Shown: piece by piece, positions 15,211 through 48,949 of the stretch
Numbering within the stretch: the first letter of the stretch is position 1
Layout of the letters: every line of letters starts with the position of its first letter
Assembly: GCA_944332475.1 (NCBI GenBank)
Contig: CALVKA010000002.1
Span: 71,147-135,146 of the forward strand
Source: an uncultured Bacilli bacterium
Lineage (GTDB): Bacteria; Bacillota_I; Bacilli_A; RF39; UBA660
Direction: 5' to 3'
Length of the DNA: 64,000 bases
Notes under the pieces: model-generated
What the model saw: the letters and a program-made list of their open reading frames with translations, nothing else
What the model was told of the DNA's origin: nothing
The model's database searches: none
Made by a program: the position numbers and the translations under genes

Positions 15211-17535
15211 TCACGCTACACGAAAATATGCATACTGACTAGTATTTCGCCAATCATATTGACTCCACATACTAGTTGACTGACTGGCTGGATCCATCAT
15301 AAGAACATTATTACCATTAATACCATCAACGGCAACCCAGTGTTGACCTGTACTACCTTTTACTTCCGCAACAACATAGTATCCTTGATTTAATAAATTC
15401 TGCAAAGAAGATAATTTTTGAGCTTGTGATTGACCAGAAACACTAACCTTACCAACATATTGAAAGTCAGGAGCAACATCACTAACCTTCCACCATCTAA
15501 AATTAGCGCCTTCAAAACCACCCACACGATTTAATGCCTGAACAAAAGTTCCTGGATTAAAATCACCATCCACATTAACTGCTACACCACTCTTAGCAAT
15601 CAACATAGAAACCGAAGTAACCAAGCAACCAACCTCTGCTATCGTACGTCTAGTATTACCGATTGTAATACTACCCCAGGCAGAATCTGCTTGTTTCCAA
15701 CCAGCATAAGGACCCGTACTTCCTGTACTATTACATCCACTTCCAGATCCTGTATTACAATTCATTTCATCAATATCAGTAGCAGCACCATATACTTGCA
15801 TTAAGATTTGCTTATAATTTAACCCCTGATTAGCCAAAGAAATAAATCGATTTTGGGTACCAGAAGCATAATTAGCGGAAACGATATTTCCCTGTTCATT
15901 TACCAATACTTCCCCCATCGTATCATTAGCAAGAGTACGCATTTTATGATCAGCTGCAAGAGGTTGCTTTAAAACGACAGCTTGATCCGTACCACTACGA
16001 ACGGTACCATATTGTTCTCCATCATTCATAGCAGAACACCCTAAATCAGGATTACAATAAACTTGATCAGCAACACAAGAAGAAAGCTGTAAAATCCATT
16101 GTCCATTCTCTTCTTCTAACTTTTTACCATTACCATTGTTCATAGCGGTAGGTCTAGCCAAAGAAAAGCTTCTAGCAGCAACCATCTGTGCTTTAATAGC
16201 TTCATCAGGTGCACTAGGACCAATTTCCTGATAAGCAACTCCAAGAATATAAGTTTCAAAAGGAACTAACTCTTCCCCTTCTAAAGGCTCATTCCAACTT
16301 CCACTACCATAAGGACTAGCACATTGCATCAAACGAACCTTTAAATCCGTAATCGTCATAGAAGCACTAACATTACCCAAACTAGAAATATAAAATCCTT
16401 TAATTTCATAAACACAAGAACCTAAACTTGCACAATCTGAACTAGTTTCACCAATTAAACTATAATAAGAATCATAATATTCCATAACTTCATCCGCCAT
16501 AGCCTCATAAGTACTTTGACTTCGATCAGGAAGATAAGTTGGAAATATATTATTAATTAAATTTTGTTTAAATGTATCCTCACTAAAACTATTACCAGAA
16601 AACATAGCATTGGCTATATTAGTAATAACATCAGTAGTCATATCATTATAGGAAAGTGTTGCACCATGTTGTTTCAAAATACTATATACAGCAGAAATAT
16701 ATACAACATCTACAGATTTTCCTTGAGATTGTAATGTCCCTTTAACAGCAGCAACACGCTCAAAAAATTCGCTAGCTTCTGGATCTGAACTCGAATAATC
16801 AATACCACCTGTAGCTCCACCTGATGCCTCACTAACACCAAAAGCATCGTCATAACTGGAAATAACACCACTACCTTGAGCAATAACAAGAAAAAGTATA
16901 ATAAGGAAAAAACCACCCGCAACAAAAGCTCCAATAGCAAGTTTTGCCGGAGTGATAGTCCCAATCCCTTCAAACATAGTGTCCAAAGGACTCTTCTCTT
17001 GTTTTTGGTTATCATCATCTAAAAAATTAGGTTTAGATGGTCTTCTTCTCCCTACACTCTCTTCTCCATCAGAAACAGATTGAGTACCAGATGGAAGAGT
17101 ATTCCCCGCTCTATTAGGAATAGAAAGTTCAGAACCACCCATATTCTTAGGATCTTGTGTCGCAAGATCAGTTGCTTTATTCGCAGCATCTAAAGCACCA
17201 CTATCATTTGCTTTAGATAAAGCCTTACGAGCAAAAGGATTTTTGGCAAGATTTTTTCCAAGTTGTTGACCAATCTTAGATTTACCAATCGCATCTCCAA
17301 CTTTAGCCCCTACTTTAGCTCCAGCCGATCCACCAAAATAAGCACCAACGACTGCTCCAGCTGTTTTTCCAGCTTTTTGAACCCCTTCTTGAGCAGATTG
17401 TTTTTCATGCTCTTTTTTTTGTTCTCGTGCAGCTTGATATGTTTGAGGTTGCTCCGTGCCAGCAGCCTGGTTTGCACTATCATCGCTACGTACTACACGA
17501 TTACCATTTAAATCATTACCTTTCATCACTGGCAC
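15211..17535 (-). CDS. bimodular peptidoglycan hydrolase: N-terminal Gly/Ala/Lys-rich region and TM, SpoIID/LytB-like domain, and C-terminal papain-like (peptidase C39-like) domain
   Basis: 774 aa. ...EAIKAQMVAARSFSLARP... is SpoIID-like. The C-terminus ...GCLVTSVSMLIAKSG... and ...GQHWVAVDG...MMDP fits a Cys/His peptidase C39-like fold. T4SS loci of Firmicutes encode such hydrolases (CwlT, TcpG, Orf14). Confidence 0.65.
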   Translation of the reverse strand: MPVMKGNDLNGNRVVRSDDSANQAAGTEQPQTYQAAREQKKEHEKQSAQEGVQKAGKTAGAVVGAYFGGSAGAKVGAKVGDAIGKSKIGQQLGKNLAKNPFARKALSKANDSGALDAANKATDLATQDPKNMGGSELSIPNRAGNTLPSGTQSVSDGEESVGRRRPSKPNFLDDDNQKQEKSPLDTMFEGIGTITPAKLAIGAFVAGGFFLIILFLVIAQGSGVISSYDDAFGVSEASGGATGGIDYSSSDPEASEFFERVAAVKGTLQSQGKSVDVVYISAVYSILKQHGATLSYNDMTTDVITNIANAMFSGNSFSEDTFKQNLINNIFPTYLPDRSQSTYEAMADEVMEYYDSYYSLIGETSSDCASLGSCVYEIKGFYISSLGNVSASMTITDLKVRLMQCASPYGSGSWNEPLEGEELVPFETYILGVAYQEIGPSAPDEAIKAQMVAARSFSLARPTAMNNGNGKKLEEENGQWILQLSSCVADQVYCNPDLGCSAMNDGEQYGTVRSGTDQAVVLKQPLAADHKMRTLANDTMGEVLVNEQGNIVSANYASGTQNRFISLANQGLNYKQILMQVYGAATDIDEMNCNTGSGSGCNSTGSTGPYAGWKQADSAWGSITIGNTRRTIAEVGCLVTSVSMLIAKSGVAVNVDGDFNPGTFVQALNRVGGFEGANFRWWKVSDVAPDFQYVGKVSVSGQSQAQKLSSLQNLLNQGYYVVAEVKGSTGQHWVAVDGINGNNVLMMDPASQSTSMWSQYDWRNTSQYAYFRVA

Positions 17536-17557: not shown

Positions 17558-19348
17558 CTAAAAACCACCACCAGAGCCAAATGAGTCTAGCTCATCTCTT
17601 GTAACGGCTACATTAATACGCATACGTCTATTTCCACAGACAAATAACGCTTCACCTTGAGAATATCTCTTAATACTTTCTTTTTCATTATCATTTAAAT
17701 CAATTAATTTACTCAAATCTTCAACAGCCTGTTTTCTAAGACCCATGACCAAATAATAAGAAGCATTATCAAAAATTGCCTTACCATGCACAATAACAGC
17801 TGGATCAGCAAAATCACTTGGTTGTTGTGTAATAATAATAGTTCCAGTATTATATTTACGAGCACGTCTTTGAACTTGAGCCAAGAACTCTGCACCAAGT
17901 CTATTATTAGAGCCTAATAAAACATGCGCTTCATCAACCATTAAAATCGTATCAACATTAAAGTCCAAACAAAGTCCCCATGCATACTTCAAAACATTAA
18001 AGAACAAAGCATCACGAATATTAGAATCCGTATTCATTAACTCTTTAATATTAAATACCATAAAATCACTATCACGACGAATTGTAGTATGTCCATCAAA
18101 ATAGAAACGCAACTCTTTCGTAATAGGACGAATTTTTAACTCCAAACGCTCCATAACATCACGTTCTTTTGTTTGCTCTGTCATGGACATCAAACGACCC
18201 TTAATCGTCGCATAAACATCTGAAAACGTTGGATAATCCTTAGAACTAAAGCCAGAAAAATCTGTATTAAAATCAATACCAAAACGTTTATACGTATCCT
18301 GAGCAACATCACTAAACATAGTCAAAACGTCTTCTTCAATCGTAGGATCATAATAAGTTAAAAACGCTTTTAAAAATTGCAAAGTACGAGTTAAAACTGT
18401 ATAACCCAAACCTTGCTTAATCTCCTCTTCATCCGCATCAATAACAATTTCAAGTGGATTTATCATACCAAATTCTCCACCCTTACCAATATCAATTGTA
18501 TCTCCGCCATAAGTTTGAGTAATTTCTCTCAACTCATCTTCAGGGTCAATCGCAACAATTTGACAACCGTTACGAATATGAGTACGAAGTAATACTTTCG
18601 CAGCAGTAGATTTACCAGATCCAGAGGTACCAAGAATAATCATATTAGCATTATTACGGTTATTTTCTTTACGAATCTTATACAAGAACTGATTAAACAA
18701 AATAACACCACCAGAGAAATCTACACCAAGTAAAGTAGAAAGTCCCGGATCTTTAATACTATCAAAAATAAATGGATACATAGCAGCAATTGTAACAGAC
18801 GGAATTGGTGTACCAATTCTTTGTTCTACATCTTGAGGAGGAAAGATTGGTAAAATACTTTTTAATACTTTTTCCTGTTCAAAACGTAAAGAAATCGCCT
18901 TTAATTCCATTGCATCCAAATAGTTTTTAACATTAACTTTCTTCATTTCTAATTCTTCTTTAGTATCAGCCGTAATCATAATGTGCATTTGAAAATCAAA
19001 AATACGAGCCTGACTACCAGCCAACATAGAAGTAAAATATTCCAAACTCTCAGCATCCTGACGATATCTTTCACGCATCGTCTGATCACGTTCATGTTGA
19101 TACTTTTCTTTTAAATCTGCAACTTGTCTATTTAACATTTTAGACATAGTTTGAAAAGGAACCGGAATGTGTTTAACAACAACCTTAATACCAGGCATAT
19201 TGGTTAACGATGATAAATACCCAGGTGTAATATATTTAGGATAAGAAACAACTGTCATAATAGTTGCATACTTATCACTAATAAAGAAATCACTAGGATT
19301 AAAACTAAGCCCTTTAGGAGCCAACTGACTTCTTAAGCTTGTACTCAT
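17558..19348 (-). CDS. VirB4/TraE-family conjugative ATPase, C-terminal ATPase portion (split gene)
   Basis: 596 aa. Walker A GTSGSGKSTAAK, Walker B ILMVDEAHVLL, RA-box region. Its ATG overlaps the stop of the upstream ORF (ATGA). A GGTGA SD lies 8 nt upstream. Confidence 0.85.
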   Translation of the reverse strand: MSTSLRSQLAPKGLSFNPSDFFISDKYATIMTVVSYPKYITPGYLSSLTNMPGIKVVVKHIPVPFQTMSKMLNRQVADLKEKYQHERDQTMRERYRQDAESLEYFTSMLAGSQARIFDFQMHIMITADTKEELEMKKVNVKNYLDAMELKAISLRFEQEKVLKSILPIFPPQDVEQRIGTPIPSVTIAAMYPFIFDSIKDPGLSTLLGVDFSGGVILFNQFLYKIRKENNRNNANMIILGTSGSGKSTAAKVLLRTHIRNGCQIVAIDPEDELREITQTYGGDTIDIGKGGEFGMINPLEIVIDADEEEIKQGLGYTVLTRTLQFLKAFLTYYDPTIEEDVLTMFSDVAQDTYKRFGIDFNTDFSGFSSKDYPTFSDVYATIKGRLMSMTEQTKERDVMERLELKIRPITKELRFYFDGHTTIRRDSDFMVFNIKELMNTDSNIRDALFFNVLKYAWGLCLDFNVDTILMVDEAHVLLGSNNRLGAEFLAQVQRRARKYNTGTIIITQQPSDFADPAVIVHGKAIFDNASYYLVMGLRKQAVEDLSKLIDLNDNEKESIKRYSQGEALFVCGNRRMRINVAVTRDELDSFGSGGGF

Positions 19349-19893
19349 ACTGGCATCACCGTCCCAAATTCCGTTGTTTTACCCCCGTTTAAGAAATTAT
19401 CAAGAATAACTCTCAAATCATCATTTGTAGTCTGTGATGCATTCAAACCACAACTAGCAAGTCCCTGAATTAACATACGAACTTTCTTCTGAACCACATC
19501 AGAATCTTTTTCTTTAAATAAGAAATAATACTCAGTATCAACAATATTATTATTAATAAACGTATTACCTTTATCAATATCTTGCATAATCAACTTACGA
19601 ATTGCTGGAGATTGTGTTTCATTATATAAAAGTTGCAACTGAGACATATAAACAGAAATATCAACAGGTCTATCCGCAACTACTAACCAAAACTCAAAAT
19701 CAATCATATTATAAAAATTCTTCAAACTAATTAAAACATTATCCTGAGCTTGAGGATCTAAAATAAAGATATTACGAGGTGCAATTTTTACTCCAGACAC
19801 TTTCAAATTATTATAAGTAACAATCATACCGTTCTGAATAGATTTTACAGGCAACCAATTTTCAGTATAATTATTTCCTGCTATTTTCTTTGC
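19345..19893 (-). CDS. VirB4-family N-terminal domain protein (separate ORF)
   Basis: About 183 aa from MAKKIAGNNYTENWLPVKSIQNGMIVTYNNLKVSGVKIAPRNIFILD.... It resembles the NWLPIK...G.I......KI..V.PINF N-terminus of Tn916 Orf16/ConE-type VirB4 proteins. It is in a different frame from the ATPase ORF. Confidence 0.65.
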   Translation of the reverse strand, partial: AKKIAGNNYTENWLPVKSIQNGMIVTYNNLKVSGVKIAPRNIFILDPQAQDNVLISLKNFYNMIDFEFWLVVADRPVDISVYMSQLQLLYNETQSPAIRKLIMQDIDKGNTFINNNIVDTEYYFLFKEKDSDVVQKKVRMLIQGLASCGLNASQTTNDDLRVILDNFLNGGKTTEFGTVMPV

Positions 19894-20188
19894 CATCCAT
19901 GAAACACCAACCTTTCCAATGATACGTTTGTGGAGCCGTAAAATACTCATACATCTCCACAATAATATTCAAAATATTATGATAATAAGGTACAGGCATA
20001 ACTAAGAACCCACAAATAACAGCTGGACTAATAATAGCAATAGTAACCCAGGTATTCGTAAGCGGCATAAATGCCAACAATATTACCGTAACCAAAACAC
20101 CCGATAAAAATAATACTAGATCGAAAGGACGAAATAATCCTAAAATTAATTGTCCCCTCTTCGTATTAGCAGGTATCAAATAATTCAC
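19871..20188 (-). CDS. VirB3-like small membrane protein (Tn916 Orf17/PrgI/TcpE-like)
   Basis: 105 aa with two TM helices. It lies immediately upstream of VirB4, as in Firmicute MPF-FA systems. Confidence 0.5.
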   Translation of the reverse strand: MNYLIPANTKRGQLILGLFRPFDLVLFLSGVLVTVILLAFMPLTNTWVTIAIISPAVICGFLVMPVPYYHNILNIIVEMYEYFTAPQTYHWKGWCFMDGKENSRK

Positions 20189-20211: not shown

Positions 20212-22365
20212 CTAATGAGGAGGTGGGCCTCCAGGACCATGGCCTCCACCAGCACCAGCCCCATCAGGGAAATCATCATCAACTCTACCAACACCAGAAG
20301 CACCCTTCATTGGATCAAATGGTTTGGCAGAAGAAGTAAATGATACACCATCGCTCGTTTCTAATTCGGAACGATAAGTAGATGTCGTTGTATCATATGC
20401 TCTAGGTGCAACACCATAAACATCAGCCCTATATTTTTCAATCTTAGAAGCACCACTGCTTGCTTTAGCAAATGCAACTTTCTTACTAGCTTCATCTCTA
20501 ATAGCGTTATTGTATCTATCATTTGCTGCAGAAAATTCTTCCTCCCAAGACTTTTGAGCATTATAACGACGACTTATATCCTCATCCAATACTTTCTTCT
20601 TAATTGGTTTACCATCAGCGCCTAAAATACTAGAATCCTCTTCACGATACATATTATTTTTAAGCCATTCCAAATTTTCTCCAGGATTTGCTGCTTTCAA
20701 ACGATCCAAATTAGCCTGTGCAAGCTTTGTCTCTAGTTCAGCATCATTTAATGCAGCCTGTGCATTATCTTTATTCCAATCAGCAAGTGCCTTGTTACGT
20801 TTTCCATAACCAGCCGCTCCAGCAACCCGCTCACGTGTTGCATAATTTAACCGATCCAAAGCACTTCCCCAAAGACCACCGTGTGCGTCTTTATCTCCAG
20901 TACGAATCTTAGCCATCAAATCTCTATTTTGACTCCATGCAGCACCTAATGGCATAGGTTTACCCTCAGCTTGTCCTTTAGCGGCAGCTTCACTTCCCTG
21001 CATAGCTCCCATCGCAAATCCAGCAAGGCCTCCGCCACCAACAGCCATCGCAGCTCCACCTAAAATTCCACTAAGTCCAATATTAGACATACCAGCACCT
21101 TTAAGACCTAATGCATCTTTAATAAACTTAGGAGCCATCTTAGCAAAGAAGAATAGTCCTAACATAATGAAGATAAAGGAAATAATACCTACCATTCCAC
21201 CAGCTTCATTAATAACAAATCCATTTACTATCATATCTTGAATTAAGAAAATAACGAAATAAACAATCGCAAGTCTTAAGAACAAATCCAAATACGTAGA
21301 AGTTAAAGCTTTTACCCAGGAAGAAAACATTCCTCCATCCTTCGACGACTTCGGTTCAATATAACTAATAACAGGAATTGGAGCAATTAACCTCAAAATT
21401 GCAAGTTTAATAGAACGAATCGCAATATCTACTGTAAACCCTACTAAAATAACTAAGAATACAATTCCAACGATTAAAGCAAAAAAACCATCAAACCAAA
21501 ATACATACCTTGAATTACCACCAAAATTTTCAAATAATGCTCCAATAATAGGAATATTACTAGCACCATTAGCCAAAGAAGTTAAAATATTATCATTAAT
21601 TTCACAATCAGCATGTAAAACTTCATCACTAAGTAATGTACTAGGATCAATATCTAACTGCATATAAGCTTGTAGTGCCTCACTGGCTGTTCCGCTTAAA
21701 TTTGCTCCACAATACCAATTTTGACTATCAGTTTCCGAATCACTTTCTCTTATTTCTACCGGCAACAGGTTAATTCTCAAAAATCCTTTCAAAATAGTAG
21801 AAGCAAAAATTCTTGAGGATCGCTCTAACATCGCTGTTTGCCGATCAGCTTCAGACATACCACTATCATCCGCAGAGCTAGTAGAGGTTGCTTCATCCGT
21901 CGTTCCCAGAATCAACCGTCCTAACGTATTATTAGATAAAATACGTTCTTGCAAAGAATACAAAGTACCAAATAGCAAACCATTATTATTAATATACTTT
22001 TCAAAAGAGTTTGCATTTTCTACATCAGGCACATTGATAGGAACCAAAACAGTAAGTAAAGCAAGCGCAACCACTACTCTCGTAATAAAATTACCAAAAC
22101 CTTCTTTAGGATTTGAAAACTGATCAGGGCTCATAATTCCTTGCAAAATAGAAACTGCAAGTTTAAATACCATGAAGACTCCAATAATAAGTTGAATACG
22201 ACCATAAAAATTCTTAATAGTCTCTGACTCAAATAGCTGAGCACTCGCAACATTAAAGAAAATTTGATACATAATCCCTAATAAAAAATAAATCCCTCTA
22301 TTTAGAAAACCAAACAAACTTCTGATTAAATCTCCTATAGTATCAGCATTACCATTATCCGTCAT
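20212..22365 (-). CDS. VirB6-like polytopic channel protein (TcpH/ConG/Orf15-like) with a C-terminal soluble extension
   Basis: 717 aa. Multiple TM helices in the first 450 aa. C-terminal coiled-coil/charged domain ending in a Gly/Pro-rich tail (GGHGPGGPPPH). Confidence 0.6.
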   Translation of the reverse strand: MTDNGNADTIGDLIRSLFGFLNRGIYFLLGIMYQIFFNVASAQLFESETIKNFYGRIQLIIGVFMVFKLAVSILQGIMSPDQFSNPKEGFGNFITRVVVALALLTVLVPINVPDVENANSFEKYINNNGLLFGTLYSLQERILSNNTLGRLILGTTDEATSTSSADDSGMSEADRQTAMLERSSRIFASTILKGFLRINLLPVEIRESDSETDSQNWYCGANLSGTASEALQAYMQLDIDPSTLLSDEVLHADCEINDNILTSLANGASNIPIIGALFENFGGNSRYVFWFDGFFALIVGIVFLVILVGFTVDIAIRSIKLAILRLIAPIPVISYIEPKSSKDGGMFSSWVKALTSTYLDLFLRLAIVYFVIFLIQDMIVNGFVINEAGGMVGIISFIFIMLGLFFFAKMAPKFIKDALGLKGAGMSNIGLSGILGGAAMAVGGGGLAGFAMGAMQGSEAAAKGQAEGKPMPLGAAWSQNRDLMAKIRTGDKDAHGGLWGSALDRLNYATRERVAGAAGYGKRNKALADWNKDNAQAALNDAELETKLAQANLDRLKAANPGENLEWLKNNMYREEDSSILGADGKPIKKKVLDEDISRRYNAQKSWEEEFSAANDRYNNAIRDEASKKVAFAKASSGASKIEKYRADVYGVAPRAYDTTTSTYRSELETSDGVSFTSSAKPFDPMKGASGVGRVDDDFPDGAGAGGGHGPGGPPPH

Positions 22366-22381
22366 AAAGTATCACCTACCT

Positions 22382-23605
22382 TTATTGTAAACCACAAATC
22401 TCATCTGTCGTTATACCAAAAATATTTAACAATACACTAACAAGTGTAGGAATTAAAAATAAAGCAACCGCCAAAACTAAGCGAATTACAAGCTTTTTTT
22501 CGGCTTTTTTCATACTATCATCATCACTAGTAATAATAGCTTTTGCAAAATCTAAACTACTAAGTATAACAACCAATATAGGTCCTAAAATTTTAACATA
22601 ATTTAATATCTGTTGTAATAACCAAGCAACCGATTCTTCATCTTCCGTACTCCCCAAAAGAGAATTACAGTCACTATTTTGATTATAAGACTCCAAGTCC
22701 TCTCTTAATGTATCTATCGTAACAGATCCCGGTTTACTATAACTATCACTACTATGATCATTTTCTTCACTGCTTTCATCACCAGGTTCTCCAAAAGCGC
22801 CACCAAAATAACCAGAACCAAACTGTTGACCATCGCTAGTACTTAATTCATCATTTTTACAATAATTTGCCCCTGCCGACAACTCATAAGAATAACCATC
22901 ATCAGTTTGTGTAACACAACGATAAATTTGAGATGGACAAGTTGTCTTAGAAGAAGAATAAATAGAATCAATTAAAGAATCATTAACAGTAATAGTAAAT
23001 TTTTCTCCTGAGACAGTACCAGTAATAGCATTAGTAACTGGAACATAAGTCTCACCATCTACACTCCACTCTTTTGTACCATCCGAATATAATCTAAAAA
23101 AAGACATTAAATAACTTTGGCGATTATAAAAACCAACACTTGGTCCAGCACAAGTAGATAAAACTTTTTTAGATTGAATACCATTTCTTTTAGCCCAATC
23201 TGTTAATTTTGGAGTAGCTGCTGTAATATTATAACAACGTCCTGTACAACTATCACTATAATTAGGTCCTGGATAAACCGTAACCCCTAAATTGTTTTCC
23301 TGCACATAAATAGAAGGACATGTAATAGTAGAATTATCTATCTTCGCAACATTATAATAAATAGAAGAAAATCGATCACTATGATACCAAGAAACACCAT
23401 CTCTCGCATACAAAGTACCATTACTAAAAGGTAGTTCTACACTACCATCAGAATATATATCATAAGTTAATTCTACTTCCTCACCGTTTTGATTTGTAAA
23501 TTGATAATTACAACTAACAACTTGATTACCAGCGGCATTTGTATTATATGGAATACAAAATAATAAGCCAAATACTAAAAGAAAGAAAGAAAACTTTAAT
23601 TGTTT
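22382..23605 (-). CDS. secreted Thr/Ser/Tyr/Cys-rich protein with a C-terminal two-TM hairpin domain
   Basis: Signal peptide MKQLKFSFFLLVFGLLFCIPYNTNA/AG (start trimmed from the 23671 ORF). C-terminal ...ILGPILVVILSSLDFAKAIITSDDDSMKKAEKKLVIRLVLAVALFLIPTLVSVLL is homologous to the 111-aa protein and to the NlpC/P60 N-terminus. Confidence 0.6.
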   Translation of the reverse strand, partial: KQLKFSFFLLVFGLLFCIPYNTNAAGNQVVSCNYQFTNQNGEEVELTYDIYSDGSVELPFSNGTLYARDGVSWYHSDRFSSIYYNVAKIDNSTITCPSIYVQENNLGVTVYPGPNYSDSCTGRCYNITAATPKLTDWAKRNGIQSKKVLSTCAGPSVGFYNRQSYLMSFFRLYSDGTKEWSVDGETYVPVTNAITGTVSGEKFTITVNDSLIDSIYSSSKTTCPSQIYRCVTQTDDGYSYELSAGANYCKNDELSTSDGQQFGSGYFGGAFGEPGDESSEENDHSSDSYSKPGSVTIDTLREDLESYNQNSDCNSLLGSTEDEESVAWLLQQILNYVKILGPILVVILSSLDFAKAIITSDDDSMKKAEKKLVIRLVLAVALFLIPTLVSVLLNIFGITTDEICGLQ

Positions 23606-23697
23606 CATTGCCACCACTCCATATATACAATCATACAGAATAAGTATAACAGAATAAAAAAAAAATAGCAATTACTTTGCTATTTAATTTATAAACT

Positions 23698-24033
23698 TTA
23701 CTGAATACTATTCCAACATTCAGCCCATCCAGCAGTATCACCAGAGTTATTATCAGCACCAGTAGCTACTAAAGACATAACTAGCGTAACCAAAGTAACA
23801 ATGAAGAATATAGCAGCTGCATAAATACATCTCTTAATTAATCGACTTTGAGCTTGTTTAACTTCTTTTTCATCACTAGAAATAACTGCTTTTCCTAAAT
23901 CAATAGTACCAAAAACAATCAATAAAATTGGAATACCAATCTGAACAATAGGAAATACACCTTTTTTAATAATTCTTACAATGGGATCCAATCCACCGCA
24001 TGGCTGATCTAAAACGTTATTCATATAAACCAC
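23698..24033 (-). CDS. small two-TM hairpin protein (candidate VirB2/ConC/TcpD-like T4SS membrane subunit)
   Basis: 111 aa. ...IGIPILLIVFGTIDLGKAVISSDEKEVKQAQSRLIKRCIYAAAIFFIVTLVTLVMSLV. The same PI(L/I)L..V...D..KA.I.SDD..KK....L..R...A..FF.P.LV motif occurs in two other proteins in the window. Confidence 0.5.
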   Translation of the reverse strand: MVYMNNVLDQPCGGLDPIVRIIKKGVFPIVQIGIPILLIVFGTIDLGKAVISSDEKEVKQAQSRLIKRCIYAAAIFFIVTLVTLVMSLVATGADNNSGDTAGWAECWNSIQ

Positions 24034-24080: not shown

Positions 24081-25067
24081 TTACCTACGAAATAAACCGA
24101 AAATTTTACCAGATTCTTTCTTCTGTTCTTTTTTCACAGCAAGTAAACCTAATCTAGATAAAAAGTCATCAAAAATAGGGTTTCTTTTTCTTTCATCCAG
24201 TGGTGGCATATTATAAAACACCCTCGTTTTTGCTTCATACTCAAAATCAGCAATGTCTTTATTCGTCAACAAACTTTTATTTAAAATAATCTTTTCGTTC
24301 TGAAGTTTTGAAAAAATATTACGATTTCTTCGCATTAACTTATTAAGTTTTATAATAGACGGTTCTAACAAATACAAAACATCTGTACAAAAAGAATCAT
24401 CAGGAGTATCATTTAAATCAATCAAAATAACAGAAGCTCCAGCATACTTAGTCAAAGCTCCATGTAACTGATCAATAGTCAATGATATCATATTTTTATC
24501 TCCAAAATATTGAAAATCGCCTTTATTTAATTCAATAGCAATAATCGTATCACCAAAATGAGTTTTCAACTCTTTCTTTAACATATAAACAAAAGTAGTA
24601 GCTCCCGCATGTTCTGTAACATTACGAACACCAATAATTCTAGAGCCACTTTCAACCTTCTGCACAACACTGTTCACAACATCATTATTCAACTGTTGAA
24701 TATGAGCAACTTGTTTATAAGTGTTGGGATGTTCTAACAAATATTTTACACCCTCTATATTAGTCGTAAAATTATAAATTCCCATAGAAACTAATTTAGA
24801 CAAAAAACTAGAGGTACATACATCCGTACCCTCAGGTAAAAAGAATACAATTTTTTCAACATCTAGTCCCATCGCAATAGTTTGGAAACTTTTAATATTA
24901 TGAAAATCTTTAATAGCAGTAACATCTAGAATCATTTTATTATAAAAGAAATTCTTAAACATTTCCACTAATTCAGTTGCGTCATACTCTCCAGAAATAC
25001 TCTTGATAACATCAATGTCCAATCCTGACAAAACATTACGTTGCACATTACTAACAATAACATTCAT
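24081..25067 (-). CDS. TadZ/CpaE-like protein (N-terminal receiver-like domain plus a degenerate ParA/MinD-like ATPase domain), putative
   Basis: 328 aa. CheY-like alpha/beta N-terminus. A degenerate P-loop (RIIGVRNVTEHAGATTF) and a hydrophobic-D Walker-B-like ILIDLN, consistent with the non-catalytic TadZ architecture. Confidence 0.4.
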   Translation of the reverse strand: MNVIVSNVQRNVLSGLDIDVIKSISGEYDATELVEMFKNFFYNKMILDVTAIKDFHNIKSFQTIAMGLDVEKIVFFLPEGTDVCTSSFLSKLVSMGIYNFTTNIEGVKYLLEHPNTYKQVAHIQQLNNDVVNSVVQKVESGSRIIGVRNVTEHAGATTFVYMLKKELKTHFGDTIIAIELNKGDFQYFGDKNMISLTIDQLHGALTKYAGASVILIDLNDTPDDSFCTDVLYLLEPSIIKLNKLMRRNRNIFSKLQNEKIILNKSLLTNKDIADFEYEAKTRVFYNMPPLDERKRNPIFDDFLSRLGLLAVKKEQKKESGKIFGLFRR

Positions 25068-25082
25068 AAGAGTTCACCTCTT

Positions 25083-25535
25083 CTATTCAAAACGAGTTAT
25101 CGCTTTCGTATTACCAGATATCTGAAAAATTCTAAGACCAGGCATAATCTTATTTATAATAGGAATATCAATATTAATTTGAGTAACAACACGATAATAA
25201 TACTGTTTATTATGTTCATTATAAGCACCAGAAGAATTTTGTACTTCGAACTCTTTATAACAATAGCCAAATGTTCTATCACATACATAATCCTCATCTG
25301 TCAAATCCAAATTACTAGCATTATATCCAACTTGATTAATATATTGTTGAATTTTGGAACGACAAGGAGTACCTACGTCACAATTTCCCTCATACTGTTC
25401 TATTGTTGTAATTATGTGGTTTTTAACACGGAATGCTTTTGTATAATTAACGTTAAACGCTAAATAGCCACATACCAAAACTAGGAATACAACAATCATA
25501 GATAAGTTGACAACACCACCAAAAGCGTCCCGCAT
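25083..25535 (-). CDS. TadE/TadF-like minor pilin or pseudopilin candidate (membrane-anchored small protein)
   Basis: 150 aa. N-terminal MRDAFGGVVNLSMIVVFLVLVCGYLAF hydrophobic anchor preceded by a short polar leader. Cys-rich ectodomain. Confidence 0.3.
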   Translation of the reverse strand: MRDAFGGVVNLSMIVVFLVLVCGYLAFNVNYTKAFRVKNHIITTIEQYEGNCDVGTPCRSKIQQYINQVGYNASNLDLTDEDYVCDRTFGYCYKEFEVQNSSGAYNEHNKQYYYRVVTQINIDIPIINKIMPGLRIFQISGNTKAITRFE

Positions 25536-25554
25536 CTTCTACACCTACCCTTTT

Positions 25555-25752
25555 TTATCTATCATAATCAACGATAACATAACCAGAAACACCAGTTGTA
25601 CCATCAGCAGAAATATTACCCCACTGTTTATTAATAGCATCTTGAATATTTGGCCACATCAACCAAAAGAAACCAATTACTGCTGCAATAGCAATAAGAG
25701 TAATAACTGTTAAGTTTAATTCACCTGTAGCTGCTTTCACTGAAACATGCAC
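25555..25752 (-). CDS. Flp/Tad-type pilin candidate (about 60 aa, short leader ending in Gly followed by a hydrophobic helix)
   Basis: ...KAATG/ELNLTVITLIAIAAVIGFFWL.... The only in-frame starts are GTG codons with awkward SD spacing (AAAGGA-t-GTG). A strong promoter lies directly upstream. Confidence 0.45.
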   Translation of the reverse strand: MHVSVKAATGELNLTVITLIAIAAVIGFFWLMWPNIQDAINKQWGNISADGTTGVSGYVIVDYDR

Positions 25753-25780
25753 ATCCTTTCTTATCTTATCTTCATTATCT

Positions 25781-25809
25781 ATTATACCAACATAATTTTC
25801 ATTTTACAA
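25781..25809 (-). promoter_or_regulatory. near-consensus sigma-A promoter TTGTAA-17-TATAAT immediately upstream of the pilin candidate, internal to the supercluster
   Basis: On the minus strand: TTGTAA (complement of 25804..25809), a 17-nt spacer, then TATAAT (complement of 25781..25786), about 30 nt upstream of the pilin ORF. It sits in the only intergenic gap longer than 50 bp in the cluster. Confidence 0.45.
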
Positions 25810-25825
25810 TAAATTTTCTATCACT

Positions 25826-26611
25826 TTACATGTTAAACATCATCATCATAGAAATCAAAATAACAACCATAGTACCAGCACCAGTTACTACTAACATAAC
25901 CATAGTTTGACTTTCCATATGATTAAGACGTTCTTTATATTTCGTTTCACGGGCTTTGTTTTGCAAATTAGATACCGTCCTAGAAAACATCATCAAACGT
26001 TCTTGTTTTCTCTCCTGTGAACCAAGACCAAGACGATATAACAAACGCATCATACGCATAGAATCTCTTACAGGATAAGTATTAGCAAACTCCATATAAG
26101 GATCAATACTAGAGTCACCTGAATTAATTCTTTCAATCAAACGACGAAGTCCAGGTTTAAAAATATCAGGAGCATCATCAATAGACTTACCTAAAGCAAC
26201 GGGAACCGTATAATGTTGTATCAAAATTTCCAAACTCTTTAAATAGTATGGCAACATAACATCAATATCATGCAAATGTGCTTTATAAAATGACTTTAAC
26301 TGTGTATATGGCATTTTAAATACTAATACTGCAACCACTACACAAAATACAATATTCAAAAACGACAATTGATTTAAGAAAATAAATAAAAATATAATCG
26401 CTACAAGGATAGCATAAAAAATTCTTTTTCTAAATAATTGATTGGGATCTACATCTTCTCCATAACGAGCATAAACTAAAAAGTTATAATCATCTTCTCT
26501 TAAAATTTCAAAGTACTTTTCATTATCAGCAATAAACTTATTTTTATCGATTGTATTATTATAAATCAAAATAAATATGATTATTGCCCCTACTACAACA
26601 ATCTCTACCAT
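25826..26611 (-). CDS. TadC-like inner-membrane platform protein (GspF/T2SS-F domain family)
   Basis: 261 aa. N-terminal TM, cytoplasmic helical domain, C-terminal TM pair. Its start overlaps the TadB-like stop. Confidence 0.55.
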   Translation of the reverse strand: MVEIVVVGAIIIFILIYNNTIDKNKFIADNEKYFEILREDDYNFLVYARYGEDVDPNQLFRKRIFYAILVAIIFLFIFLNQLSFLNIVFCVVVAVLVFKMPYTQLKSFYKAHLHDIDVMLPYYLKSLEILIQHYTVPVALGKSIDDAPDIFKPGLRRLIERINSGDSSIDPYMEFANTYPVRDSMRMMRLLYRLGLGSQERKQERLMMFSRTVSNLQNKARETKYKERLNHMESQTMVMLVVTGAGTMVVILISMMMMFNM

Positions 26612-27513
26612 TACTCAGCACCTACATTCTCGTTATAATATTTTTCTCCCTTTAATAAGAAGAAAGTATTAATAATTAAGACCCCGTGTAGTAATACCTT
26701 TACATACCAGCGTTCTAACATAACTAAGTAGGTCTCTCGTCCTAACAAATATTGAGTTAACATAACTAATAAGTAAAGCATAATACCAAATTGTAAAAAT
26801 GACTTATGGAAAGTTGCTCTTTCGATACGGTCACGATAAACACTTTCAACCAACATATCGATATCAAGTTGCATATTATCCAAAGAATCCATCGAGTTTC
26901 TAGCACCCTCTTTTGTAATTTGCAAGAACAACTGATGCATGTTTTTAACAATATAATATGGATATAGCTGACTCATATAATTTAAAGCCTCATCAATACT
27001 ACCATCTTGATAAGCAAGTTCAATCATATGATCAACATCACTTTTAACAGGGTCTTCCAAAATACCAGAATTACGAACTCCCTCTAATGCCTTAACAAAA
27101 GATTGAGTAGTTGCAAATTCCATAATGGTATTAGAAGTATATACTTGAATTTGCTCAAAGATAAATTCACTATAGACTCTTTTACAACGTAAATACGACA
27201 AATACGGAATAAACATAATAACTGCAATAATATAAATCAATGATACAAATAAATTATAGAAATACAAATAACTTACTACTCCAGCAAAAGCACCCATCAC
27301 AACAACTTGAATCATATATTGTCTAGGAGTATATTCTTGACCCAACTCTTTAGTTTTCTCACGAACAATTTTAAAAGAATAAGGAGCAAATTTATCATAC
27401 ATGCTACGAACCTGGGTAGTAATAAATTTTCCAACATTTTCTCCTTTATAATTACGATAAAGAGTAATAACTACCACTATTACAATTAGAAAAATCAATT
27501 CTTCTATATACAT
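26611..27513 (-). CDS. TadB-like inner-membrane platform protein (GspF/T2SS-F domain family)
   Basis: 300 aa with the same TM, helical-domain, TM architecture. It lies directly downstream of the secretion ATPase. Confidence 0.55.
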   Translation of the reverse strand: MYIEELIFLIVIVVVITLYRNYKGENVGKFITTQVRSMYDKFAPYSFKIVREKTKELGQEYTPRQYMIQVVVMGAFAGVVSYLYFYNLFVSLIYIIAVIMFIPYLSYLRCKRVYSEFIFEQIQVYTSNTIMEFATTQSFVKALEGVRNSGILEDPVKSDVDHMIELAYQDGSIDEALNYMSQLYPYYIVKNMHQLFLQITKEGARNSMDSLDNMQLDIDMLVESVYRDRIERATFHKSFLQFGIMLYLLVMLTQYLLGRETYLVMLERWYVKVLLHGVLIINTFFLLKGEKYYNENVGAE

Positions 27514-27529
27514 ATAAATTCACTCCCTT

Positions 27530-28975
27530 CTATTCTAAATTACCTAAAGAATTAAAATCGACTGGCGTTGTAACACCACTACCCTCTGATGATGTAGGAA
27601 CAATACCAACCGACGATGATGTTTCAGCTGCAACACTAGGTGTAGGAGCATTATCCACAGACGGTGTAGAAGCTGCTACAACCGAAGCACTAGGTGTAAC
27701 TGTAACCGTTGAAACACCAGCAGTAGACTGAGCACTGACATCATTAGAAGGAACAGTCTGAGCTACAGGTTGTTGCACAGTAGATTGGACAACTGGAGTG
27801 ATATTAGCTACCTGAGGAACAGAAGAATTAGTAGTAACTTGGGAATTCTCATCCGAAGTAGCTGGATGCTCCTCCATATACTCTTCCCTTTCTTCATCAT
27901 CATGAAAAGGCAAATCATCACTTAAATGCTCTGTAATAGCATTAATATCAATATTTTGGTTTTCCAAATATTCAATTAAATGTGGACTTGGTTTTCTCAT
28001 TACAGGCTCTTGATTAAATAGTTTTTGATAAATAATTCTAGTCTGAGGTTTATTATTTTCATCTACATAAAATTCACAAACCTCATCCACTTCACGATGG
28101 AATTTACCTAATTTTTTACTATAATAAGCTTTAATATGAACACCAATCTGAATATAACGATAAATCGTATTCAAAAACTGATTAACATCCAAATCCGTTT
28201 CCATCAAACTATACATACGATAAGGAATAGCAGTTGCTTTATCGGCATGAATAGTAGACAAAATATTATGTCCAGATGAAATAGAGTTACGAACAGCAGA
28301 AACAGCTTCTGCACTACGAACTTCGGATAACAATATCCACTTTGGATTCTGACGCATACAGGTAACTAATACATCCGTATAACTAGCAACATTATTTGTC
28401 TTCATCGCAACAATATCACGTTGAGGAAAGATTTTATCCAAATGAAGCTCCAAAGTATCCTCAATTGTAATAATCTTTTCCTCTGTACGTGTATGACTCG
28501 CTAAATATTTAACAAACTCTGTTTTACCAGAACCAGTTTCACCACAGACAATAATATTACAATGACCTTCAACACATTTAATCAAAATATCATGTATATC
28601 CTGAGTAAAATACTCATCTTTTAACAATTTATCTTTTTCCAATCGAATCTTAGCAGGAGTCTTACGAATAACCATAGCAATTCCATTCGTCGCAATCGAA
28701 GGATGTACAAAGTTTAAACGTAACTCTGCAGATTCAGCATCCAAAAAAGGCTTAGCATTATTAAATGTTGTTCCCATAACATTAGAACATTGAAAAGCCA
28801 ATTTTTCAATAAATTCCGGGGTCAATCCCTGAACCTCTACTCTAAGAGATCCTTGAGTTAGAGAACGTACCCAAGTTTGCCCATTATTATCAAAGGAAAT
28901 ATCTGTAATATCATCATTATCCAATAATGGCCGTAATGGTCCGAAATCTAACTTATCAAAAATATTCTCGTTCAT
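27530..28975 (-). CDS. CpaF/TadA-family secretion ATPase (VirB11/PilT superfamily) with a Ser/Thr/Val/Pro-rich C-terminal tail of about 110 aa
   Basis: 481 aa. Walker A GETGSGKTEF, Walker B ILLSEVR, His box LSTIHADKA. The tail reads ...TSDENSQVTTNSSVPQVANITPVVQSTVQQPVAQTVPSNDVSAQSTAGVSTVTVTPSASVVAASTPSVDNAPTPSVAAETSSSVGIVPTSSEGSGVTTPVDFNSLGNLE. Confidence 0.85.
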   Translation of the reverse strand: MNENIFDKLDFGPLRPLLDNDDITDISFDNNGQTWVRSLTQGSLRVEVQGLTPEFIEKLAFQCSNVMGTTFNNAKPFLDAESAELRLNFVHPSIATNGIAMVIRKTPAKIRLEKDKLLKDEYFTQDIHDILIKCVEGHCNIIVCGETGSGKTEFVKYLASHTRTEEKIITIEDTLELHLDKIFPQRDIVAMKTNNVASYTDVLVTCMRQNPKWILLSEVRSAEAVSAVRNSISSGHNILSTIHADKATAIPYRMYSLMETDLDVNQFLNTIYRYIQIGVHIKAYYSKKLGKFHREVDEVCEFYVDENNKPQTRIIYQKLFNQEPVMRKPSPHLIEYLENQNIDINAITEHLSDDLPFHDDEEREEYMEEHPATSDENSQVTTNSSVPQVANITPVVQSTVQQPVAQTVPSNDVSAQSTAGVSTVTVTPSASVVAASTPSVDNAPTPSVAAETSSSVGIVPTSSEGSGVTTPVDFNSLGNLE

Positions 28976-29005
28976 CTAACCCATCTCCTCTTTATTCTTC
29001 AAAAT

Positions 29006-29824
29006 CTATCCAATACTTTCATCCCAATAAGTATGAGTATTAATCCAATCACGTAGATATTCACTACTCAACTCTAAATCATCAGGTTCATCTTGTAAGC
29101 TCTCATTCGTTGGAACTGGAACAAGTTCAGTATCATATAAATTCAAATAACTAGCCTTCTTAAGCAAGACATAATAATCTTCAGGCAAAGCAAATATAAG
29201 CATAGCTGGAGTTCTCTGTTCATCTAAATTAGAAAATACTGCTTGACCAGAAGAATCTCTAACAGCTAGCACTTGAACGTTAGAGATAAATTTACTATAT
29301 CCTAACAATTCACTTTCATCAGATGATGTTGCTACTTGATTCTCAACACCTTTTAATGTAATTCTTAAGTAAATATCAATATAGTTTCCTGGATAAATAG
29401 AGTTACCATAAGTAGACTCAATATCAACAGGCATATTATATAGAACATAACCTTTTGGATAATCCAAAATAATATTAGCAGGTAATTGTTCCTTCTCAAC
29501 AACTTGTCTACTATAAAATAAACTACCCTCAGGAATCAAAGTATCTGCATTTGAATATTTATCAATAATATCTGCAGAATTTGTTAAAACGTCCCCTTCA
29601 AGCATAGAAGGAGGAACCTCCATTGTCCCTACCATATCTTCAGTAATCTGAGTTCCAGGACTTATTTGCTGTGTAGCATAAGGAACTGCAATCGGATTAA
29701 CTGCTGCTTGAACTCTCATATTATAGGCAATATATAATACCAAAACAGCAACCACTACACCAACAACAGTTACGGTATTTTTATTAGATAAAAACTTTTT
29801 TATTCCGACACTGATATTTCCCAT
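29006..29824 (-). CDS. CpaB/RcpC-like Flp pilus assembly protein (SAF-like domain)
   Basis: 272 aa. N-terminal TM. ...ISPGTQITEDMVGTMEVPPSML.GDVL... is CpaB-like. It lies immediately upstream of the ATPase, as in tad loci. Confidence 0.5.
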   Translation of the reverse strand: MGNISVGIKKFLSNKNTVTVVGVVVAVLVLYIAYNMRVQAAVNPIAVPYATQQISPGTQITEDMVGTMEVPPSMLEGDVLTNSADIIDKYSNADTLIPEGSLFYSRQVVEKEQLPANIILDYPKGYVLYNMPVDIESTYGNSIYPGNYIDIYLRITLKGVENQVATSSDESELLGYSKFISNVQVLAVRDSSGQAVFSNLDEQRTPAMLIFALPEDYYVLLKKASYLNLYDTELVPVPTNESLQDEPDDLELSSEYLRDWINTHTYWDESIG

Positions 29825-29850
29825 TTTATCCTCTCCTTTCTTTATATGCT

Positions 29851-30318
29851 CTATCTAGCATCAATAGATTTACCAAAGTCACTATCTGTATTTTCTAGTT
29901 CGTTGGAAACCAAAGGATCATAATCATATGTATTTTCCAAAATAGCATCGACTTGAGTACTCATTTCCAAATTATCGCCTTCAAAACTTAATACGGTAGA
30001 AGAGTCGACTTTAACACTTACTTTAGGTGGAACTTCATTCAAATCATAAAAAGACAAATGATAATTTCTTGTAGTATCAACAGAATCAGCAAATCTTCTA
30101 ATAAAACTTTCCACAAACTTTTCTTTGTCCATACGAAGCAATCCATTTTCACGATAATATTTAACATCAATTGCATCAACCATAGCTGCTTCACTAGTTT
30201 CCTTCACCAGGTAGTAATCTAACTCACTACCTGATGAATAATTGGAAATAATATTTATCATCAACAAAGTTGCCAAACTTAGAATAATAATACCAACAGT
30301 TAACATCGCTTTATTCAT
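29851..30318 (-). CDS. small membrane-anchored protein (possible minor pilin or assembly factor)
   Basis: 155 aa. N-terminal TM MLTVGIIILSLATLLMINIISNY. Confidence 0.45.
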   Translation of the reverse strand: MNKAMLTVGIIILSLATLLMINIISNYSSGSELDYYLVKETSEAAMVDAIDVKYYRENGLLRMDKEKFVESFIRRFADSVDTTRNYHLSFYDLNEVPPKVSVKVDSSTVLSFEGDNLEMSTQVDAILENTYDYDPLVSNELENTDSDFGKSIDAR

Positions 30319-39965: not shown

Positions 39966-39969
39966 ATTA

Positions 39970-40614: not shown

Positions 40615-40627
40615 ATTATCCCTCCTA

Positions 40628-43377: not shown

Positions 43378-43388
43378 ATATTTCCTCC

Positions 43389-45610: not shown

Positions 45611-46396
45611 CTATCCTGCAATATAAAAAGCATAATCCTCTTCTGTAAAAAATTCTTCTTCTCCATAAACAGAGTAAATTGTAAAAGGTCGATAGGCCAT
45701 TAATTTACCATTTTCAATATAATAATAAACAGAATCCATGTAATCTTCAACACCACGCCACTCTAAAAAGCACTCATAATCACACTCTTCTTCTACAAGA
45801 TAACCTTTATACACTTCTTCCTCATAAAAATCACGAAATTGTATTTCAATTTTTTCTGCAACATCATCCTCTGTTACATCAAACAAAGATAAAACCAGCT
45901 CATCACTCATCAAAGATTGTGTATTTAAATTAAAATTATAAGTATGAAAAGTAACATCAGGAAAAGAATAACCGGAACTATAATCAGACATACGAAGCAA
46001 TAAAGATAAGACTTCTCCATTAACCTGAGAATCATATACCATCAAATTATTACGATTCTCCAAAAAAGAATCTGCATAATTTTGAATTGTTTGATTCACT
46101 GTATTAGCATCTTCACTATCAATATTAACGAAAGGAATTTCGCTATGCATATTCTGACCATTAACAGAAGTATCTATCGTATAAACCAAATATTGAGAAG
46201 TATCCTGCTTAATATAATTATAATTACTATAATAATTTTTATACAAATAATAACCAATCAATAATACAATAAAAACAACAACAACTATCCAAACAAGAAC
46301 TTTTTTCCGACTAAAAGAAGGAAAAGAATGCATTGTCTTTTTCGGTTTAGGTTTTTTTTGAACATTTACATTTCTTTCTTGTACAACACCAAACAT
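45611..46396 (-). CDS. membrane-anchored hypothetical protein (mini-island)
   Basis: 261 aa. Basic cytoplasmic N-terminus, one TM (VLVWIVVVVFIVLLIGYYLY), acidic ectodomain. Confidence 0.5.
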   Translation of the reverse strand: MFGVVQERNVNVQKKPKPKKTMHSFPSFSRKKVLVWIVVVVFIVLLIGYYLYKNYYSNYNYIKQDTSQYLVYTIDTSVNGQNMHSEIPFVNIDSEDANTVNQTIQNYADSFLENRNNLMVYDSQVNGEVLSLLLRMSDYSSGYSFPDVTFHTYNFNLNTQSLMSDELVLSLFDVTEDDVAEKIEIQFRDFYEEEVYKGYLVEEECDYECFLEWRGVEDYMDSVYYYIENGKLMAYRPFTIYSVYGEEEFFTEEDYAFYIAG

Positions 46397-47253: not shown

Positions 47254-47265
47254 AATCCCACCCCA

Positions 47266-48923: not shown

Positions 48924-48949
48924 AAATACCCCTCCAGAAAAATAAAGAG

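Follow-up and report, generated by a model that had tools for sequence, protein, structure and literature searches.

A hairpin domain shared by three proteins

Three genes in a 64,000-nucleotide stretch of DNA from an uncultured Bacilli bacterium (GTDB lineage RF39, UBA660; contig CALVKA010000002.1 of assembly GCA_944332475.1, forward-strand positions 71,147 to 135,146; referred to below as the window) encode proteins with a common two-helix hairpin of about 100 residues. The hairpin makes up the whole of a 111-amino-acid (aa) protein, the C-terminus of a 429-aa protein and the N-terminus of a 282-aa protein that also carries an NlpC/P60 domain. The first two genes, here called pilin A and pilin B, adjoin genes of a type IV secretion system (T4SS). 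The three open reading frames (ORFs) were confirmed on the minus strand, and their features are as follows.

23698..24033, minus strand: pilin A, a standalone pilin-like protein (the ORF has a GTG start and 111 aa; database entries start at the ATG at 24024 and have 108 aa)
22382..23671, minus strand: pilin B (ORF of 429 aa; the likely gene has 408 aa and starts at the ATG at 23608, MKQLKF...)
22385..22684, minus strand: pilin-like hairpin of pilin B (ORF residues ~330-429; profile hidden Markov model (HMM) E=1.3e-21; PF18895 E=0.015)
46405..47253, minus strand: 282-aa fusion of an N-terminal pilin-like hairpin and a C-terminal NlpC/P60 endopeptidase
46927..47235, minus strand: pilin-like hairpin of the 282-aa protein (residues ~7-109; HMM E=9e-19; PF18895 E=2.8e-4)
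46456..46740, minus strand: NlpC/P60 catalytic domain (residues 172-266; PF00877 with 57.9 bits and E=1.1e-15, the cutoff being 23 bits)

Pairwise BLASTP was carried out with composition-based statistics. The 111-aa and 429-aa proteins match each other with E=8e-15 (35% identity over 69 aa), and the 429-aa and 282-aa proteins with E=1e-9. Furthermore, a profile HMM (A4) was built from 64 standalone relatives only, so that neither the 429-aa nor the 282-aa copy is contained in it, and was scored against all window ORFs of at least 40 aa, many other membrane proteins among them. The 429-aa and 282-aa proteins were recovered with E-values of 1.3e-21 and 9e-19, respectively, while the next-best ORF reached 0.18. 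Thus, the window contains exactly three copies of the domain, and generic transmembrane (TM) composition does not explain them. Several of the conserved positions are not hydrophobic, namely a Cys before helix 1, the Pro in 'PI.L', the stretch 'D-L-G-K-A', a K/R-rich loop and 'W..CW' after helix 2. A sequence-only reading of the window had proposed that such a hairpin recurs in these three proteins; this is borne out by both BLASTP and the independent HMM, and the motif as written in that reading agrees with our alignments. From these sequence comparisons we regard it with high confidence that the three copies are homologous and represent pilin modules of the PF18895 type.

Pilin A, pilin B and a conserved cysteine pair

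Pilin A consists of an N-terminal tail with the conserved Cys, a first helix (PI-L-L...DLGKAV), the charged loop SSDEKEVKQAQSRLIKR, a second helix and a C-terminal tail with W..CW. As read from the sequence, the loop carries a net positive charge. An AlphaFold2 (AF2) model calculated from a 64-sequence alignment predicts a helical hairpin (residues 13-48 and 52-90) followed by a short C-terminal helix, with a predicted local distance difference test (pLDDT) score of 83 that rises to 90-95 in the core. Two hydrophobic helices with a short charged loop between them are a trait of TrbC/VirB2 proteins, and they are present in pilin A both in the AF2 model and in the sequence. The distribution of the protein was followed in 55 species-level genomes (L001-L055), in which synteny was judged wherever the contig extends far enough. 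Across these species the pilin A orthologs are 45-96% identical and are always encoded upstream of VirB6; in the most distant genomes pilin A occurs alone, without pilin B. We consider it with moderate confidence that pilin A polymerises.

Pilin B is composed of a Sec-type signal peptide, a beta-rich Cys-containing ectodomain (approximately 23527-22859), a disordered acidic linker and the C-terminal pilin hairpin, and the AF2 model of the 408-aa form shows the corresponding signal helix, beta domain, disordered linker and hairpin. A Foldseek search with the ectodomain and the 408-aa model gave no fold match in the PDB. All species have a Sec-type signal peptide at the N-terminus of the protein and the arrangement C-x-LLG...SVAWLLQ-hairpin-TCGLK at its C-terminus. 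Its overall length ranges from 127 to 448 aa among the orthologs: the ectodomain has about 220 residues in the lineage of the window, other lineages have 20-100 extra residues, and the minimal form of 127 aa (L021) comprises the leader and the pilin only. In most of the 55 species the gene is located between pilin A and VirB6. The pilin part is 76% identical among orthologs, as compared to 55% for the ectodomain and 48% for the linker, which is the pattern expected of a pilin that has acquired a surface-exposed, faster-evolving insert. By its layout, pilin B is a signal-peptide propilin with an inserted ectodomain of 0-300 aa.

The two tails of the hairpin each contain a Cys, one preceding helix 1 and the other following helix 2, in 252 of 265 family members (95%), and this holds for all three architectures. 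The simplest reading of this pair would be an extracellular disulfide which staples the ends of the hairpin together or links neighbouring subunits. In T-pilin and TrbC the pilin is cyclised head to tail, and by analogy the disulfide may be a functional counterpart of this cyclisation. An N-out/C-out topology with both tails outside would fit all three window proteins, because the loop is net positive (positive-inside rule), pilin B has a signal peptide and the NlpC/P60 domain must act outside the cell.

A large family related to PF18895

To define the family, a profile made from the three window copies and seven relatives was searched against 1.84 billion representative proteins. It matched 9,769 representative clusters (at 50% identity) with E<=1e-3 and 4,076 with E<=1e-10. 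Among the best 150 of the 9,769, the domain occurs standalone in proteins of about 100-140 aa, at the C-terminus of proteins of 185-759 aa and at the N-terminus of proteins of 270-530 aa. The search thus returned thousands of specific matches, and the concern of the sequence-only reading that the motif might reflect a generic signal-anchor composition does not apply.

All three copies give sub-threshold matches to the Pfam family PF18895 (T4SS_pilin): 17.8 bits and E=0.0035 for the 111-aa protein, 15.8 bits and E=0.015 for the 429-aa protein, and 21.4 bits and E=0.00028 for the 282-aa protein. These matches extend over practically the full model (positions 3-71 of 71 across the copies, 4-71 for the hairpin of the 429-aa protein). 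PF18895 is also matched by 35 of 147 family representatives at E<=1e-3 (best 7.3e-8), and P0123, an ortholog with about 79% identity to the N-terminus of the 282-aa protein, passes the gathering score (27.1 bits vs 26.6). Precomputed PF18895 annotation exists for the orthologs P0121 and P0123. Two of the three copies are encoded inside a T4SS cluster, as applies to PF18895 proteins, both in the window and in the 55 species; the NlpC/P60 copy is encoded outside it. Among the NCBIfam models, the hairpin of the 282-aa protein matches NF045890 (pLS20_p028) with E=3e-6 and NF045849 (Mbov_0395, pilin-like) with E=8e-4, and family members match NF045849 as well as NF045848 (MMCAP2_0566), both of which are families from integrative and conjugative elements (ICEs) of Mycoplasma. 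A tblastn search of 72,556 plasmids with the 111-aa protein and the N-terminus of the 282-aa protein gave no match. On the basis of these profile matches, the domain is a divergent branch of PF18895, large and mostly unannotated, in gut Bacilli with small genomes.

Comparison with known systems

PrgF of the Enterococcus faecalis plasmid pCF10 is a VirB2-like pilin of 75 aa that is essential for conjugation; it has been modelled as a pilus on a PrgH pentamer, and labelling reagents gain access to its loop (ter Beek et al., bioRxiv 10.64898/2025.12.18.695078). According to the same preprint, about 95% of the Gram-positive conjugative plasmids encode similar small proteins with two TM helices next to virB6, with 'almost non-existing sequence homology' among these proteins. 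Pilin A resembles PrgF in being a small membrane protein of two helices and a short charged loop, the gene of which precedes a VirB6-like gene. It shares the size, the two helices and the proximity to virB6 of the PrgF_B2 type (50-150 aa, two TM), its gene being located one gene upstream of VirB6. The gene order of pCF10, prgF-prgG-prgH(VirB6)-prgI(VirB3)-prgJ(VirB4)-prgK(hydrolase)-prgL-...-pcfC(VirD4), is the order found at the window locus. However, PrgF lacks the Cys pair of the window family, PrgG (98 aa) is not a pilin-domain protein, unlike pilin B at the corresponding slot, and pCF10 is a plasmid with a relaxase whereas the window locus is chromosomal and has none. By analogy with PrgF, pilin A appears to be a further member of this recently recognised kind of Gram-positive VirB2-like pilin. 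A review from December 2025 states that, apart from Patescibacteria, VirB2 has not been found in Gram-positive T4SSs, a view which has been overturned for plasmids by the preprint on PrgF of the same month.

For Patescibacteria (also known as CPR), PF18895 serves as a VirB2-like pilin profile (Microb Genom 2025, PMC12102498). Patescibacteria have chromosomal T4SSs without relaxase and with arrays of 2-11 divergent PF18895/VirB2-like genes, and one species cannot grow as an epibiont without such a T4SS pilin array and its type IV pili. The window locus is similar in its tandem divergent pilin paralogs near virB4/virB6, the lack of a relaxase, the presence of a type IV-filament system and the reduced genome of its host. 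The host of the window differs in belonging to the Bacillota, and the passages of the T4SS_pilin literature considered here mention neither the Cys pair nor a large inserted ectodomain nor fusions to enzymes.

In the ICEs of Mycoplasma (Mbov_0395, MMCAP2_0566 and the VirB4 protein Mbov_0397) a short pilin-like protein is likewise paired with a longer protein containing the same domain, and the VirB4 of the window is closest to the Mbov_0397 model (E=4e-103). The scores with the pilin-like models are below the curated cutoffs, and the genes are ICE-borne in Mycoplasma but form a fixed chromosomal locus joined to a Tad-like module here. With the classical TrbC/VirB2 proteins the family shares the hairpin of two hydrophobic helices and the basic loop, and the leader of pilin B resembles a propilin leader; the host of the window is, however, a monoderm. 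Finally, the archaeal Ced/Ted systems for DNA import are relaxase-less, chromosomal, derived from conjugation machinery and equipped with a VirB2-like pilin (Nat Commun 2023, PMC9905601, and general background). They belong to another domain of life and have no demonstrated sequence relation to the window locus.

The NlpC/P60 fusion and its neighbourhood

The NlpC/P60 domain of the 282-aa protein is intact, and its DCSG, GHVAI and IHAS motifs can be read from the translation. The VirB1-like wall hydrolases of Gram-positive T4SSs (PrgK, CwlT, Tn916 Orf14) are membrane-anchored NlpC/P60 or CHAP enzymes. The fusion resembles them in being, as predicted, a membrane-anchored extracellular NlpC/P60 protein in a T4SS-bearing organism. 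It differs from them in that its gene lies outside the T4SS operon, its anchor is a pilin-type hairpin instead of a single TM helix, and the operon contains another hydrolase. Other enzymes which carry the same N-terminal module are a Peptidase_C39_2 and a GDSL esterase. The gene directly downstream encodes a partner of the fusion:

45611..46396, minus strand: 261-aa membrane protein (no Pfam or NCBIfam match)

This partner is co-conserved in 12 of 12 related metagenome loci, in which the fusion itself is 45-83% identical, and the pair of enzyme and partner is tandemly duplicated in three of them (L065-L067). The gene order RuvX-DUF1292-MltG-OMT-[fusion]-u261-...-U32-U32, a housekeeping block, is found in all 12. 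A query with the N-terminal 125 aa returned just 13 short or frameshifted proteins and missed the intact 282-aa entries, which at first pointed to a rare or decaying fusion. This reading was rejected, as many assemblies (about 100 index blocks) contain the identical 282-aa protein and intact orthologs exist. The short 'homologs' (P0121-P0133) are frameshift fragments from an error-prone assembly (L060, a 31-kb contig of ENA ERZ21549426), where RuvX, MltG and OMT are broken as well; thus, they reflect assembly errors and not gene decay.

The arrangement RuvX-DUF1292-MltG-OMT ... U32-U32-kinase-like-HD-...-GreA of the window (38841-42663 and 46405-49662, minus strand) resembles the conserved yrrK-yrrO/greA block of Bacillus. 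Just downstream of the fusion and its 261-aa partner, a 712-aa protein (43389-45527, minus strand) combines a type IV prepilin N-methylation motif with Cys-rich repeats of the thrombospondin type 1 kind, and is followed by a gene for a 219-aa protein (42736-43395, minus strand). This pair is present in L065 and L066, occurs in a short form in L068 and is absent from others of the related loci, and is therefore a variable insertion. Both the NlpC/P60 pair and the prepilin-like pair are insertions into the RuvX...GreA neighbourhood.

The T4SS and the Tad-like module at the pilin genes

The pilin genes are located at the junction of a T4SS gene cluster and a Tad-like pilus module with the following components.

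24081..30318, minus strand: Tad-like pilus module, adjoining the pilin genes on their upstream side, with a TadA/CpaF ATPase, RcpC/CpaB and DUF5411
20212..22365, minus strand: VirB6/TrbL-like polytopic membrane protein of 717 aa, directly downstream of both pilin genes (PF19597 TrbL_4 E=2.6e-6)
17558..20188, minus strand: VirB3/VirB4 as three consecutive ORFs of 105, ~183-205 and 596 aa (NF045975, Mbov_0397-family VirB4)
15211..17535, minus strand: cell-wall hydrolase of the T4SS operon, 774 aa, with SpoIID and Peptidase_C39_2 domains
11954..14380, minus strand: VirD4-type coupling protein of 808 aa (PF02534 E=1.3e-55)

From high to low coordinates, the genes encode a sortase, a 976-aa protein, DUF5411, RcpC/CpaB, TadA/CpaF, two polytopic proteins (261 and 300 aa), a 65-aa Flp-like candidate, a 150-aa TadE-like candidate and a 328-aa protein of unknown function, followed by pilin A, pilin B, VirB6 (717 aa), the three VirB3/4 ORFs, the SpoIID/C39_2 hydrolase, a 260-aa unknown protein and VirD4. 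This block (11954-34051, minus strand) forms one conserved chromosomal unit flanked by housekeeping genes, namely Lon, trigger factor, TrpRS and RmuC on one side and GreA and others on the other. A Pfam search of the window revealed neither a relaxase nor an integrase. The window belongs to a 1.42-Mb contig of a human-gut assemblage. The arrangement, including a three-way split of VirB4, is syntenic in the 55 species of gut Bacilli, and the Tad-like module adjoins the T4SS module in L086 as well; the relatives are uncultured gut 'Bacilli/Tenericutes' metagenome-assembled genomes, e.g. Candidatus Faecimonas, and are classified as Bacilli incertae sedis. The Tad and T4SS locus is a fixed chromosomal system and not a mobile element. 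In some lineages tandem arrays of three or four pilin genes occupy the same site (L046, L086); the array of L086 (4649-7205) at the Tad/T4SS junction consists of four genes for proteins of 104, 120, 167 and 417 aa.

The 717-aa VirB6-like protein is presumably the assembly platform. Its residues ~51-108, which form the first TM hairpin, are weakly matched by the pilin HMM, with a domain E-value of 0.013 in the window and values of 1e-4 to 0.02 in seven related loci; this may indicate a distant relatedness or merely a similar hairpin composition. A fourth copy of the pilin domain in the window, in the T4SS hydrolase or at the N-terminus of this protein, was considered and rejected, as the A4 HMM yielded nothing beyond this weak VirB6 signal. 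The three VirB4 ORFs align to positions 2-96, 100-276 and 294-891 of NF045975. That the split VirB4 is a pseudogene was rejected, since all those of the 55 loci whose contigs reach this region show the same three-way split; it is a conserved organisation of a VirB3-like protein, the N-terminal part and the C-terminal part of VirB4.

Two small observations concern the Tad side of the junction. The 328-aa protein (24081-25067, minus strand) is encoded between the Tad and T4SS modules in all loci and matches neither Pfam nor NCBIfam families. A stretch similar to a Walker A motif but devoid of the lysine (VTEHAGATTF) suggests that it is a degenerate TadZ/ParA-like protein. The 65-aa ORF MHVSVKAATGELNLTVITLIAIAAVIGFF... 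(25555-25752, minus strand), located between the TadE-like and the TadC-like gene, is a candidate for an Flp-type prepilin, which no profile confirmed. NCBIfam searches with the unknown neighbouring proteins were uninformative.

Proposed role of the hairpin and alternatives

On balance, we think it rather probable that the hairpin is a VirB2-like T4SS pilin module which is used in three ways, as pilin A, in the ectodomain-bearing pilin B and as the anchor of an NlpC/P60 enzyme. Pilin A would be the major subunit, recruited from a pool in the membrane to the VirB6 platform, where the stacked subunits could form a conduit that spans the wall or extends outside the cell, as proposed for PrgF/PrgH of pCF10. 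Pilin B could be built into the same assembly by means of its pilin module; its variable beta-rich domain would face outward, and the protein would serve as an adhesin or minor pilin. A VirB5 homologue is not known from such systems. In the 282-aa protein the pilin module would act as an N-out/C-out anchor which places the endopeptidase outside the membrane; there, the fusion might join the pilin pool or the T4SS site and cut local openings into the peptidoglycan. We regard it as less likely than not that the fusion acts together with the T4SS and does not just have the anchor in common with it.

A number of observations weigh against these proposals. A direct BLASTP comparison of the 111-aa with the 282-aa protein is not significant (E=1.2), so that the homology between the two is transitive via the 429-aa protein. 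Together with low-level spurious profile matches to the TM5-loop-TM6 hairpins of G-protein-coupled receptors (GPCRs), which illustrate that such hairpins can resemble each other, this could be taken to mean that hydrophobic hairpins with a charged loop are alike by chance or composition. We attach hardly any weight to this explanation: it is ruled out by the composition-corrected BLASTP values for the other two pairs and by the independent HMM, which separates both fusion copies from all other window ORFs, and the conserved Cys, Pro, D-L-G-K, K/R loop and CW positions are at odds with it. All three copies remain below the gathering score of PF18895 (15.8-21.4 bits vs 26.6). The comparison with TrbC/VirB2 that the sequence-only reading had suggested revealed no profile similarity; hhalign of the A4 family against an alignment of eight annotated VirB2/TrbC proteins gave a probability of 0.3%, and direct homology to the Agrobacterium-type VirB2/TrbC proteins (PF04956) was not detected by it. 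Searching PDB sequences with the family profile retrieved no solved pilin but GPCR TM5-TM6 noise, and Foldseek of the pilin model against the PDB gave no significant match, to a solved conjugative pilin or otherwise. With PrgF the family HMM gives a score of only 4.5 bits, and PF18895 is not matched (best Pfam match Maff2, E=0.004), which is consistent with the near-absent homology reported among Gram-positive VirB2-like proteins. The tie of the domain to Gram-negative VirB2 is thus one of architecture and context, with no demonstrable sequence homology. Of the earlier proposal of a pilin-like module and VirB2 analog, the pilin-like character stands, with the full-length sub-threshold matches to PF18895, the NCBIfam links to pilin-like families and the PrgF-like position of pilin A in its favour, while a similarity to TrbC/VirB2 in sequence or profile did not emerge. 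As a description of a specific pilin-like module of this T4SS, 'VirB2 analog' is the best current reading of the domain.

Alternatively, the hairpin may be homologous in all three proteins but serve as a mere membrane anchor in both fusions. The NlpC/P60 protein would then be a housekeeping wall hydrolase of the MltG neighbourhood, the 429-aa protein a membrane-tethered surface protein, with neither of them in a filament or working with the T4SS, and a pilin would be found only in the standalone form, if at all. We give this explanation appreciable, though lesser, weight. The sequence-only reading had placed the NlpC/P60 gene 9 kb from the pilin genes and tied it to the same machinery; the actual distance from the pilin pair is 22.4 kb, and what stands of the proposed tie is the homology of the shared domain. 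In all loci the fusion is encoded in the housekeeping block between the OMT/MltG and U32 genes and never in the T4SS operon, whose hydrolase slot is already filled by the SpoIID/C39_2 protein. Related fusions occur outside T4SS clusters as well: the GDSL-esterase fusion (L082, 2182-3228) is encoded between hpf (ribosome hibernation) and uvrB/uvrA, and two tandem proteins of 759 and 800 aa which end in the pilin module (L084, 9001-13758) are encoded beside rplU-rpmA with no recognised T4SS genes nearby. The module may thus often simply be an anchor. On the other hand, most of the 55 species keep the 429-type gene at one place, between the pilin gene and VirB6, and its product is evidently a pilin precursor with an insertion; moreover, the fusion copies retain the full signature including the Cys pair and the loop, for which a simple anchor has no need. 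It has also long been assumed for Gram-positive systems that proteins of this kind are integral-membrane channel subunits of the T4SS, i.e. stoichiometric partners of VirB6 that form no pilus. None of the Gram-positive T4SSs has been imaged with a pilus (bioRxiv 10.64898/2025.12.18.695078), and the family has no detectable similarity to solved pilins. We nevertheless consider this improbable, since labelling of PrgF with polyethylene glycol (PEG) indicates an exposure of the loop that is consistent with extrusion from the membrane (bioRxiv 10.64898/2025.12.18.695078), and since tandem arrays of diverging paralogs and ectodomain insertions are typical of surface-exposed filament subunits.

Implications

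Overall, the VirB2-like pilin module proposed here would extend to a family of about 10,000 clusters, whose pilin-like members belong to chromosomal T4SSs without relaxase in uncultured gut Bacilli and mostly escape the Pfam thresholds. The family HMM is ready to be used for the annotation of thousands of small membrane proteins that are currently 'hypothetical'. As a whole, the locus parallels, within the Bacillota, the pair of T4SS and type IV pili of Patescibacteria, which hints at how gut bacteria with reduced genomes may interact with other cells. The near-universal Cys pair leads to a testable prediction on the stabilisation of the pilin, and the fusions show that both ends of the pilin tolerate cargo, a 300-aa ectodomain at the N-terminus and enzymes at the C-terminus.

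It is conceivable, although in our view rather unlikely, that the locus of Tad-like module, T4SS and pilin array is the Bacillota counterpart of the T4SS and pilin array that are essential for epibiosis in Patescibacteria, and that it builds an 'armed' wall-spanning filament in gut Bacilli with genomes of about 1.4 Mb. If this were true, the armed subunits would carry a fast-evolving binding domain, or an NlpC/P60 domain, a C39-like peptidase or a GDSL esterase on the outward C-terminal tail. Such a pilus would recognise and cut the wall of a partner cell, and would serve contact-dependent exchange or parasitism instead of plasmid conjugation.

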